From Escherichia phage Ec_Makalu_002: a stretch of DNA of 64,000 bases. This document shows positions 39,780-43,657 of the stretch, in pieces. Positions within the stretch are counted from its first letter, which is position 1; each line of letters begins with the position of its first letter. The notes under the pieces were generated by a model. It ran no database searches. It had not been told where the DNA came from and worked only from the letters and a program-made list of their open reading frames with translations. The stretch lies in sequence record MN709127.1; one strand, written 5' to 3'. The position numbers and the translations under genes are program-made.

Positions 39780-40148
39780 TCAACCTTTTTGTTCCATGAA
39801 AAGCGGTGCTGTTTCTTCTTTCAGTTTAATAACTAGCGCGGAAACTTCATCAAGAAAATCTTTTTCCATATGAGCAAGCATTGATTTAGAATCTTTGATG
39901 ACTTTCAAAGAATATTCACTTAGATTTCCTTTTCCTAACAATAATGCAGGATACACACTATGTGGGATCTCGATTTCATGATATTCGCTCATAGTATAAT
40001 ATTTGTGAATTTTTAAATCTATATTTCTTCGTTGTACGTCCACATCAGCAATGACATACAGAAGTTCGATTTTATCACTTTTCTGGGAAAGGGTAGCATT
40101 CAAAAACATTGTTAATCCTCCGTTGTTTCGATGTGTGGTATTATACAT
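39780..40148 (-). CDS. hypothetical protein (122 aa)
   Basis: ORF track. Confidence 0.45.
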   Translation of the reverse strand: MYNTTHRNNGGLTMFLNATLSQKSDKIELLYVIADVDVQRRNIDLKIHKYYTMSEYHEIEIPHSVYPALLLGKGNLSEYSLKVIKDSKSMLAHMEKDFLDEVSALVIKLKEETAPLFMEQKG

Positions 40149-40192
40149 TACCGCGCCAGAATGTCAATACATTTTCATAAAATTTTAGGCAA

Positions 40193-40216
40193 TAAAAAAG
40201 CCTCCCCGAAGGGAGG
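40193..40216 (-). terminator. rho-independent terminator after gene 32
   Basis: GCCTCCCTTCGGGGAGGC followed by TTTTTTATT on minus strand. Confidence 0.6.
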
Positions 40217-40228
40217 CCATAAAATTCA

Positions 40229-41203
40229 TTACATCGCTAACAGAGAATCCAGGTCATCCAGATCAGAAGCGGAGGAAGTACCGCCACCCAGGTCCAGAGA
40301 TGCCATCAGGTCATCAGCGGAAGAATCTAACGCCGTGCTAGCTGCGTTAATACCAACTACAGTGCTAGCTGCGGTAGTACCAGCGTCGAATGCATTCATC
40401 TGTGCGTCAAAATCATCAAGCTGGCTGTTAATCGCTGCCGCAGCACTGGAAGCCGCAGCACCAGCTACCATAGAAACGCCCATAGTTTTCTTAAATTTGG
40501 TTTCCAGTTCATCGAACGGTTTAAACTGGCTAGGCGCTACAATCTCACTCAGATCAACCATGTTTTCCATCAGATATTTCTGATATGCTTCGTCTTCAAT
40601 TTTCGGAAGCTGTGATTGCTGCATGAAACGAGAATCATCATAGTTCTGGTGTTTATCAACCTTCTTAGCTTTCAGGAGGAAGTTAGCACCGGAGAACACA
40701 CAAGTTACATCTACCGGAACTTCGCCCATGTCGGTATTCACGTTAACCATCGCAACGATCTTATCATAAATTTTCTGACCGAAGCGGAATTTAAATACCT
40801 TACCTTCGTTTTCTGGTGCTTGAGGATCTTTCAGTACCAGAATGTTTGCGTAGTAAGACGCTTTACGCTTAATCAGTTGCCATTCGGTTTTATCGGTATT
40901 GTACAAATCTTTTTCGTTAATATATTTGCACACAGGGCAAGAATCAAAATCACCGTGGGTGCTGGAGCAGTTTTCCCAATACCATTTTCCATTAACTTTG
41001 AAGGAATGGTTTACCAGTTTCACAATCGGCAGACCGTCTTCTGTCTTAGACGGCAGGAAGCGAATCAGGGCTTCACCGTTACCTGCTGCATCAGTCTTAA
41101 TCTTCCACTCTTTCGGGTCTTCTTTGGAGAAACCGTTGCCACCTTTCAGTGCGGCCAGTTGAGCTTGCAGTTTGGAAGAATCTTGACGACGGAACATGTT
41201 CAT
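40229..41203 (-). CDS. 32: single-stranded DNA-binding protein gp32
   Basis: FLPSK, zinc site HGD.DSCPVC, acidic C-terminus; aligns with T4 gp32. Confidence 0.95.
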
Positions 41204-41263
41204 AATTATACCTCTTTATATATTAACTATTGATTAATTTACGTTTTATACTATATCAGATAC

Positions 41264-41860
41264 TTAATTGCTTGTCAATATTTTATCAATTATATCTAAC
41301 AGTTTTGGTTTTCTATTTTCAAATTCTAACATCTCTTCGGGAGAAATGTCAACTACTTCTGTTTTGTTGAAAAAGTTTGGGTCTATAGCATCAGCAACAA
41401 AGTTTCTCGCAAGTGCTGCCGCTTTCTCATGAACATATATTCCCAAATATATCAACTTCTTTCTTTCGACCTGAATATTGGCAACATATTTACCATCTCG
41501 TTTATAAAGACTAACGCCGATATATTCAGATGATCGACCTTTCTGTTTACCCATATTTCTTGAGTTTTGTTGCTCGTTCGCATCTCTCAAGTTTTCAATC
41601 CGATTATCTGTTATAATTCGGTTAATATGGTCAACGTATTTTGGCATGTATCCATGATGCATAAAGAAAATTATTCTATGCTCCTTATGATGTTTACCAT
41701 CGATACACACCAATCTGTATCCATGACTAGGATTAACTCCACCCGCTCTAGATCCGACTTTATGCTTTCTGTTTGTCGATATCTTGCGAATCAGCTTACC
41801 GTTATCATATTTAAAGAGTTCATGACAACGGGCATACAATTCAGGATCATATGTTTTCAC
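41264..41860 (-). CDS. HNH homing-type endonuclease with AP2-like DNA-binding domain
   Basis: HHGYMPKYVDHINRIITDNRIENLR (HNH) plus SEYIGVSLYKRDGKYVANIQ (AP2-like); 198 aa. Confidence 0.7.
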   Translation of the reverse strand: MKTYDPELYARCHELFKYDNGKLIRKISTNRKHKVGSRAGGVNPSHGYRLVCIDGKHHKEHRIIFFMHHGYMPKYVDHINRIITDNRIENLRDANEQQNSRNMGKQKGRSSEYIGVSLYKRDGKYVANIQVERKKLIYLGIYVHEKAAALARNFVADAIDPNFFNKTEVVDISPEEMLEFENRKPKLLDIIDKILTSN

Positions 41861-42524
41861 CTTTTAACCTCGATATTTCTTTACACTCTTTAACTACTTT
41901 AACAAATAATGCTCTTGCTTTTGTGGCGTCAATAACAAGTAGTTTCTTGTACGCCTTCATTTTAACACTATAAGTTTGCCAAATCAAGTCTTTGGCTACC
42001 TTGTCGTGTTCGTCGATTATATTTAGAAAGCTATCTAACAACATAAACGACTCAAACGATATAATCCGATTTTGCAGTAGTTTAAAGATACCGCTAGTTT
42101 CGGTTGCGGGATTGTATGTAATTAGCTCTTTAAGAGTAACCCCGCGTTTCTCTGAGAAATATACAAGACTTTTAATGTCATCGTCAAATCGTGTTGCCGC
42201 ATCGGTTATCTTTCCTATGTATTCCATATAAAAGCCGTATGCGTCAACATCAGTGATTTCACCTACCCATGCATCGGTATTAGCTACCAGATTGCTTAGG
42301 AATAGGAAGTATAATTCTCTTAGATTGTACTTTTCCGCTAATTTCGCGAAATAATACTTATCTCTGCGTTTATTGAATGCGGCATCAGATAACCGCATCC
42401 TCCAATTGTATTTTACGCAATCATAACGCCCGTTCATATGAGCTTTCATCATGCAATATAACATATACACAGATTTAGCATTAATTCGCATATCTGGATC
42501 TGGAGGAAGACGGTTTCTGATCAT
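41847..42524 (-). CDS. 59: helicase loader gp59
   Basis: Strong match to remembered T4 gp59 (KSVYMLYCMMKAHMNGRYD, ISFESFMLLDSFLNIID). Confidence 0.9.
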   Translation of the reverse strand: MIRNRLPPDPDMRINAKSVYMLYCMMKAHMNGRYDCVKYNWRMRLSDAAFNKRRDKYYFAKLAEKYNLRELYFLFLSNLVANTDAWVGEITDVDAYGFYMEYIGKITDAATRFDDDIKSLVYFSEKRGVTLKELITYNPATETSGIFKLLQNRIISFESFMLLDSFLNIIDEHDKVAKDLIWQTYSVKMKAYKKLLVIDATKARALFVKVVKECKEISRLKGENI

Positions 42525-43060: not shown

Positions 43061-43657
43061 TTAACCCTCTTTAGTCATTAATTGAAAACCACGTTCAGCT
43101 TTTGAGATTTCGCTAGGACTTAAATCGTCACCCACATATTCTAGCATCATTTCTCGGATAATGTCAAGTGCTTTTTCATCACCTGATTTTAACTCGAACT
43201 CAAGTTCATAGTGAGCCTCTCCCATTCTTTCGCCGACTTTGCAATAATAGAAAGTGTCTTTGCACATTTCCACTATAGCACCCTCAAGGTCAAGTGTCAA
43301 TGACTTGCGGTATGTCATTACTTGCAATAAAGGAACGATAAGGTCGGAGTTTACGCCTAGACTATCAACATAATGATAGAAATCATCCATTGTTGAAAAA
43401 GTGATTTCTTCTCGGTTGAATAGTCCAGATTCACTATCACCTATTTTGACCATGATCAATGATCTATTAACGTCAAGTCGAGCATAAATTCCTTTTCGAC
43501 GCAGTGCATGATCTTCGGTATCATAATAAAATTCGTGTTTTAGTGTGTTAGCATGATCTACGATATTGTACCCGTCATACATTGCTACCAACAAATCACA
43601 GATTGTTTCGACGCCAATTTGTGAGTGTGCATAGTATTTTAATTCAAGTTCTTTCAT
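43061..43657 (-). CDS. CYTH-like (triphosphate tunnel metalloenzyme) domain protein
   Basis: N-terminal ELELK (ExExK) and C-terminal ELEFE acidic strand; 198 aa. Confidence 0.5.
   Translation of the reverse strand: MKELELKYYAHSQIGVETICDLLVAMYDGYNIVDHANTLKHEFYYDTEDHALRRKGIYARLDVNRSLIMVKIGDSESGLFNREEITFSTMDDFYHYVDSLGVNSDLIVPLLQVMTYRKSLTLDLEGAIVEMCKDTFYYCKVGERMGEAHYELEFELKSGDEKALDIIREMMLEYVGDDLSPSEISKAERGFQLMTKEG

Follow-up and report, generated by a model that had tools for sequence, protein, structure and literature searches.

The gene at 41264..41860 on the minus strand of the window (the whole 64,000-nucleotide stretch of Escherichia phage Ec_Makalu_002 that was analyzed, record MN709127.1) is very probably a free-standing HNH-AP2 homing endonuclease gene inserted at the gene 59/gene 32 boundary of a Krischvirus, as judged by comparison with related sequences. 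A sequence-only reading had placed such a gene at this position, and that observation is confirmed, the list of open reading frames, Pfam and PHROG all locating here a coding sequence for 198 amino acids with a GTG start and a TAA stop. That the protein cleaves DNA and homes is what we infer, along with the position of the cut and the choice between a nick and a double-strand break. The gene is of the textbook free-standing type and not a new kind of element, and it leaves the current understanding of homing endonucleases unchanged; both HNH-AP2 homing genes in RB49-type phages and family replacement at one locus have already been described. It does illustrate in nature how unrelated families of selfish nucleases, two in this case, can converge on one boundary between essential replication genes, both of them embedding in gene 32 regulatory DNA, and it explains presence/absence polymorphism in Krischvirus isolates, including some put forward for therapy. 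Carriers and non-carriers, more than 97% identical and growing on the same host, also make an easy experimental system for an HNH-AP2 enzyme and its target. Finally, annotations can be corrected to HNH-AP2 homing endonuclease, from ‘Fis family transcriptional regulator’ in phages E26 and 011D4 and from ‘hypothetical protein’ in kvi, Cognac, pEJ01, and FL20.

The gene, its surroundings and its protein

The window genome is a Krischvirus of the RB49/Phi1/JSE/GEC-3S type. The region of genes 32 and 59 is matched by 58 phage records, all of them Krischvirus and mostly 96-99% identical, with MIZ4 and MIZ5 the best matches (98.3%), and the same 597-nt coding sequence is annotated in the GenBank records of near-identical phages, in Skers, ELT4, and MIZ4 as ‘HNH homing endonuclease’. 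The downstream neighbor is gene 32, for the ssDNA-binding protein (40229..41203, minus strand; Pfam gp32, 1e-51), followed by a terminator-like hairpin at 40199-40218 (terminator scan). On the other side lies gene 59, for the helicase loader (41847..42524, minus strand; Pfam T4_Gp59_N, 4.5e-41, and T4_Gp59_C, 6.4e-29), with homologues of gp33, DsbA, a CYTH-domain ORF and RNase H upstream of it. The CYTH-domain ORF (198 aa, 43061-43657, minus strand, between dsbA and rnh; Pfam E = 5e-7; PHROG 14893, of unknown function) occupies a position at which T4 has no gene, and one part of it, 43500-43590, shows no more than 85-88% identity between window and E26, against 95-100% in its surroundings, which marks a small mosaic segment.

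The Shine-Dalgarno sequence of the endonuclease gene, GAGG, lies within the 3' end of gene 59 (41868..41871, minus strand; from junction alignments), 7 nt 5' of the GTG, and non-carriers have TCAA at the equivalent place. The GTG start is supported, since the alignment with homologues begins at the first residues (helix 6-15, ELYARCHELF). The GC content of the endonuclease region, 0.32-0.36 versus 0.35-0.44 nearby, presents no anomaly. Folding of 41800-41930 (z = -0.17 versus shuffles) revealed no RNA hairpin sequestering the Shine-Dalgarno sequence or the start codon, of the kind found in some T4 endonuclease genes, and no second copy of the gene was detected in the window by tblastn.

A sigma-70-type promoter for gene 32, TTGACA-17-TATAGT, is predicted at 41250..41278 (minus strand; consensus scan, 11/12 matches), with its -35 box (41273-41278) inside the last endonuclease codons, the ORF reading through the TTGACA. 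In GEC-3S and RB49, the homologous element, TTGACA-16-TATAAT, carries a gene 32 promoter annotation; drawn from consensus matches and from this third-party annotation, the gene 32 promoter assignments are putative. Another promoter-like site, TTGACA-18-TAGAAT with TG, a consensus match only (11/12), is situated in the tail of the endonuclease ORF (41323..41352, minus strand) and is kept in the E26 allele. The T4-type late promoter, TATAAATA, is not found near the gene, and the five occurrences in the window are at chance level. The gene 32 leader and translation-initiation region (41204-41263; first codons 41190-41203) comes in at least three mosaic versions in near-identical phages, including a window/ELT4 type, AAAGAGGTATAATTATGAACATG, a JSE/E26 type, AAAAGAAGGAATAGTGAATATG, and the leaders of ELT3 and phiS, which are hybrids of these two. 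Which version a phage has does not depend on the endonuclease gene, the window-type initiation region being present also in the non-carriers ELT3 and phiS, and UUAA/UUAAA repeats, the proposed gp32 operator units, are found in all of them.

The protein is composed of an I-HmuI-like HNH domain, an AP2 domain and a helical tail. The N-terminal HNH (beta-beta-alpha-metal) nuclease domain (residues ~1-105; 41546..41860, minus strand), with the motif D77-H78 ... N90 ... N99, is matched by Pfam HNH_3 (PF13392; E = 5.2e-12, 45.6 bits versus a cut-off of 24.8, residues 61-101) and by PHROG 99, ‘HNH endonuclease’ (E = 2.4e-51). The AP2-type DNA-binding domain (residues ~112-160; 41381..41527, minus strand), a three-stranded sheet plus a helix, is matched by Pfam AP2 (PF00847) at E = 7.4e-5 and 23.4 bits, under the curated cut-off of 33.3, and precomputed PF00847 matches exist for the E26-type allele and for many homologues. 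A profile built of 64 homologues matches the plant AP2 domains of WRI1 (E = 4e-10) and TEM1 (1e-7), thus confirming the AP2 assignment independently of Pfam. The same profile matches the HNH homing endonuclease I-HmuI (8e-6), whose ‘VDHKDGNKDNNLSTNLRWVTQKINVEN’ aligns with the family pattern ‘VDHIN…DNRIENLR…N..N’, D77, H78, N90, and N99 corresponding to its VDH…N…N. Residues G21, H61, R62, D77, H78, E89, N90, R92, and N99 are invariant across the alignment of the 64 homologues, and D77, H78, N90, and N99, that is, the catalytic histidine with the adjacent aspartate and both asparagines typical of HNH/His-Me finger endonucleases, are intact in both the window and the E26 alleles. The AlphaFold2 model (pLDDT 95.9, pTM 0.85) predicts a beta-beta-alpha-metal fold for the first domain, as in HNH/His-Me finger endonucleases, and for the second a three-stranded antiparallel sheet on a helix, like solved AP2 domains. 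The combination of HNH and AP2 modules that had been read from the sequence is therefore borne out, by HNH_3 over its threshold, AP2 through the homologue profile, and the intact catalytic residues.

A search of a set of 5.8 billion proteins returned 259 homologues; among the matches listed, none is more than 50% identical besides the two Krischvirus alleles, most are ~160 aa long, and about half of the 120 homologues listed carry precomputed PF13392 and PF00847. These ~160-aa proteins end just past the AP2 domain and lack the helical tail of ~35 aa (residues ~163-198; 41267..41374, minus strand), for which one long helix is predicted (174-197 in the model). In the DNA of the tail the window and E26 alleles are 93% identical, as against 62-88% in the core. 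As to an origin of this 3' extension and of the gene 32 leader outside the carriers, blastn with 41204-41400 matched only the 11 carriers and a 32-nt stretch of the ELT3 leader.

Insertion site, distribution and alleles

Alignment of the junctions of three carriers (the window, ELT4, and E26) with JSE, GEC-3S, Makalu_003, ELT3, phiS, Phi1, and two IMG/VR contigs places the segment inserted relative to the empty-site genomes at ~41280..41854 (minus strand). The empty site reads ‘…AAAGAAATATCTCAATTAAAAGCCGAAACAAATAGTTGACAAGTAAATTTAAATCTGTATAAT…’ in these alignments, the left junction of the carriers reads ‘…AAAGAAATATCGAGGTTAAAAGGTGAAAACATATGA…’, and the right junction reads ‘…GATAAAATATTGACAAGCAATTAA…’ in the window and ‘…AATAAAGTATTTGACAAGTAA…’ in E26. 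In E26 the insert adds ~570 bp net, and in the window, where the gene 32 leader is longer as well, 586 bp; the interval between genes 59 and 32 is 60-72 nt when empty versus 630-646 nt when occupied. The insertion point lies 12 nt ahead of the ancestral stop codon of gene 59, and the insert changes the very end of gp59 from …SQLKAETNS to …SRLKGENI; two replacements, of TCAA by GAGG and of GCC by GGT, create the endonuclease Shine-Dalgarno sequence and GTG start, and the start of the ORF overlaps gene 59 by 14 nt. The junctions are identical in every carrier examined, and the 3' ends of the alleles differ by a frameshift, the proteins terminating in LTSN or in FDK. Comparison of ~1.65 kb of gene 59 and gene 32 sequence separates carriers from non-carriers consistently at 41871-41868, 41860-41859, 41285, and 41279 and nowhere else; these fixed differences all lie within ~12 bp of either junction, with no co-conversion tract, in the form of carrier-specific SNPs in gene 59 or gene 32, found beyond the junctions. 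This confinement would point to a target at the insertion site itself, and the fixed differences appear compatible with immunity of the carriers; they need not be immunity changes, because the same substitutions create the Shine-Dalgarno sequence and the start codon.

The gene is carried by 11 of the 58 Krischvirus records, and the other 47 (~40 distinct phages once RefSeq/GenBank duplicates are removed) have an intact 60-bp empty spacer, 95.7-100% identical over 93 bp. The site is empty in RB49, Phi1, and JSE themselves, a search of IMG/VR for close relatives added only three more close Krischvirus loci, all empty, and no intact empty site was found elsewhere in the 11 carriers. With empty sites precise and identical, and with the ORF full length in 11/11 carriers, this comparison of phages with and without the insert agrees with the earlier view of a free-standing gene that is optional, not universal, at its site. 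The carriers form no cluster by flank similarity. In the 1.8 kb upstream the closest relative of the window is JSE (98.5%; the carrier ELT4, 97.9%), in gene 32 it is Makalu_003 (99.5%; ELT4, 98.8%), and both of these nearest flank relatives are without the gene. Thus the element shows one fixed site with precise empty sites and a distribution decoupled from the flank phylogeny, the marks of a homing endonuclease gene.

Two alleles are recognized, one in nine carriers with a 98.5%-identical protein and one in E26 and 011D4 with an 84%-identical protein. The endonuclease core (41760-41380) of the window shares only 62-88% of its nucleotides with that of E26, against 97-100% in the flanks, suggesting that the two alleles are much older than the phage backbones that carry them and therefore entered independently or were replaced by recombination. 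The core has dS = 1.16, dN = 0.14, and dN/dS = 0.12, with a whole-gene dN/dS of 0.14 (Nei-Gojobori) and dS ranging over ~0.75-1.2; the low dN/dS (0.12-0.14) is indicative of purifying selection on the protein.

Other variation is seen around gene 32. In one Krischvirus genome (L006/L021; IMG/VR UViG_2974573495, 164,706 bp), gene 32 is only ~84% identical to all the others at the nucleotide level while gene 59 is 98% identical, suggesting that gene 32 itself has been exchanged as a cassette. Krischvirus genomes also vary in the slot just downstream of gene 32 (window 39780-40148, minus strand; L014:1-1383, L013:136-1380, L003:575-1384, L005:1-181). Phi1 ORF240 (460 aa) and phiS gp092 (414 aa), located there, carry CapR-homology and DUF4379 treble-clef domains, an ‘endonuclease’ is annotated in GEC-3S, ELT4 has an unrelated 269-aa ORF, and in the window a 122-aa ORF without a Pfam match lies behind a perfect TTGACA-16-TATAAT (40167..40140). 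With a variable slot on either side, gene 32 appears bracketed by two mobile-gene slots, like an ‘HEG island’.

Proposed mechanism and rival explanations

The endonuclease gene, with no upstream promoter of its own, would be transcribed with gene 59 and translated from the GAGG/GTG overlapping the gene 59 end. On co-infection with a relative that has no such gene, the AP2 domain would bind the uninterrupted ‘…ATATCTCAATTAAAAGCCGAAACAAATAGTTGACAAG…’ junction or a nearby sequence, possibly with help from the C-terminal helix, and the I-HmuI-like HNH domain would nick or cut there, the expected position in empty-site DNA being near the joint of …AAAGCCGAAAC and AAATAGTTGACA…. Recombination-dependent repair would then copy the endonuclease gene, along with adjacent markers, from the carrier genome. 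A nick is plausible because of the single HNH site and the resemblance to I-HmuI; that the extra C-terminal helix mediates dimerization for a double-strand cut is a speculation. The carrier itself would be immune, its site being interrupted by the insert and 6-8 of the flanking bases being altered. The target could instead be remote and identical in carriers and non-carriers, with immunity achieved otherwise, since SegG of T4 is listed as cleaving in gene 32 (PMC2988022 Table 1). Once in place, the gene may be hard to remove, as the putative gene 32 promoter overlaps the endonuclease frame, so that a clean deletion is proposed to be disfavored, T4 segG being in the same situation. The patchy distribution could partly reflect loss rather than gain.

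Such loss is central to one alternative, a single ancestral invasion whose product is now inactive and is being deleted in most lineages. The minority status of the gene (11/58), the private substitutions of the window allele (such as I79, versus V in the ELT4 and E26 alleles) and the frameshifted last codons would all fit a decaying relic, but every carrier retains a full-length ORF with an intact catalytic motif, dN/dS has stayed at 0.12-0.14 over a dS of ~0.75-1.2, the empty sites are precise and identical with no ragged deletions, and alleles far more diverged than their flanks are unexplained by simple vertical decay, so we consider this alternative very unlikely. Selection on the protein is also what one would expect to see of a domesticated DNA-binding regulator, whose AP2 domain, a transcription-factor fold, would bind near the gene 32 promoter or at another phage or host site and modulate transcription, the nuclease being lost or irrelevant. 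The overlap of the ORF with gene 32 promoter elements and the annotation as a Fis family regulator in E26 (MN655998) and 011D4 (MT478991) speak for this possibility. No Fis-like domain is detected by Pfam, however, the family-invariant HNH residues persist in both alleles, and a gene needed by the phage would not be missing from 47/58 close relatives, making a regulatory role hardly credible.

A third possibility retains the nuclease activity and makes homing secondary, the main function being inter-phage competition or another target, through marker exclusion, anti-satellite action or nicking of host DNA. SegG causes marker exclusion, according to the title of Liu et al. (2003) as cited in PMC535899, and domains derived from homing endonuclease genes have been co-opted in phage-satellite conflicts (Barth et al., 2023, PMC10448857). 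Yet the only consistent differences between carriers and non-carriers are at the gene's own insertion site and no further target can be inferred, and such a function overlaps mechanistically with homing rather than excluding it; as the main role of the enzyme we regard it as very unlikely. Homing into the gene 59/gene 32 boundary thus remains the preferred explanation.

Comparison with SegG and other homing endonucleases

The T4 annotation places SegG (gene 32.1) between genes 32 and 59. The sequence-only reading had set the Krischvirus gene in the slot of segG, and this is upheld: both endonuclease genes follow gene 59 immediately and precede gene 32, with the same orientation. The segG gene has its left junction at the gene 59 stop codon, and the HNH insert has its own 12 nt ahead of the ancestral stop. 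Alignment of T4 with a contig that is otherwise 99.5% identical but has no segG loses homology at the gene 59 stop codon and regains it at the gene 32 operator. Likewise, segG is optional in close relatives (absent from contig L025, present in L026 and L032). The protein families are different, as had been proposed, and unrelated, with a BLASTP E-value of 11 between SegG and the HNH protein. Pfam detected no GIY-YIG domain in T4 SegG and its homologues, so that the GIY-YIG assignment of SegG rests on the T4 annotation and the literature.

The interval was surveyed at 100 loci, from 20 fetched records and 80 IMG/VR contigs. The order 59 to 32 is nearly universal at these loci, the spacer is usually 14-130 nt, and only two endonuclease families occupy the interval, SegG in T4-type contigs and the HNH-AP2 gene in Krischvirus. 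A SegG homologue is found in another genus (L038; 58% identity, E = 2e-88). In the cyanophage-type contigs of this sample, the interval holds a DUF1825 ORF or ORFs of unknown function, and in representatives of Winklervirus, Mosigvirus, Jiaodavirus, Gaprivervirus, Gualtarvirus, and Muldoonvirus the spacers are short and all empty. Across these loci the site is recurrent but not crowded. Of the earlier suggestion of a recurrent target site for mobile endonucleases, what is shown is the recurrence of the insertion locus, with two families, and not a shared cleavage target; the SegG site is listed in gene 32.

More tentatively, the 59/32 boundary may be a cross-genus landing pad, colonized independently by the GIY-YIG endonuclease SegG in Tevenvirinae and by the HNH-AP2 endonuclease in Krischvirus, the latter recognizing the junction itself, a proposal to which we give somewhat less than an even chance. 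Each would enter at the last gene 59 codons and fuse its 3' end to gene 32 regulatory DNA, and this fusion would make either endonuclease hard to delete. A candidate recognition element is GCCG in ‘AAAGCCGAAAC’, which is GGTG in carriers and ACAG in JSE; if GCCG is the element, JSE-type sites could be naturally resistant alleles. The two 84%-identical alleles of the endonuclease might also differ in specificity.

The HNH-AP2 class of homing endonucleases was reportedly described by Magnani and co-workers in 2004. The window protein shares with this class an N-terminal HNH domain, a C-terminal AP2 domain and a free-standing gene in a phage genome, beside essential genes. It differs by its extra ~35-aa helical tail; its locus is empty in RB49, Phi1, and JSE, and its homologues outside Krischvirus are at most 50% identical among the matches listed. 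I-HmuI of Bacillus phage SPO1 (PDB 1u3e) resembles it as a monomer that has one HNH active site and, after it, a DNA-binding module, but is intron-encoded, unlike the free-standing window gene, and its C-terminal DNA-binding modules are not AP2. These modules are NUMOD-type helices and a helix-turn-helix, and I-HmuI is a nicking enzyme. In the literature searched, no close relative of the window protein has been characterized biochemically. The ‘HNH-AP2’ class of homing endonuclease genes has been tabulated for RB49 (1), JSE (2), RB43 (3), and RB16 (6), as well as for KP15 (Petrov et al., 2010, PMC2993671 Table 5), the ‘IPA-HNH’ genes of ICP1 phages are related to this class, and one locus can hold endonuclease genes of the same class or of entirely different classes in related phages (Barth et al., 2023, PMC10448857).

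The closest parallel in position is provided by segG, a free-standing GIY-YIG gene inserted at 32/59 whose listed cleavage site is in gene 32 (Edgell et al., 2010, PMC2988022 Table 1), whereas here the fixed differences are found only at the insertion junction. The segG cassette has no promoter of its own and embeds the middle and late promoters of gene 32 (Edgell et al., 2010, PMC2988022), and the Krischvirus gene is likewise a promoter-less cassette, presumably read from upstream transcripts and with putative gene 32 promoters embedded in its coding sequence. The two differ in that SegG replaces the promoter-containing spacer, while next to the HNH insert the predicted sigma-70 promoter is retained and the ORF runs into it. 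The suggestion that segG is a chimera that has extended into the gene 32 operator of its recipient (Borjac-Natour et al., 2004, PMC535899) has a direct parallel in the HNH ORF reading into the -35 box.
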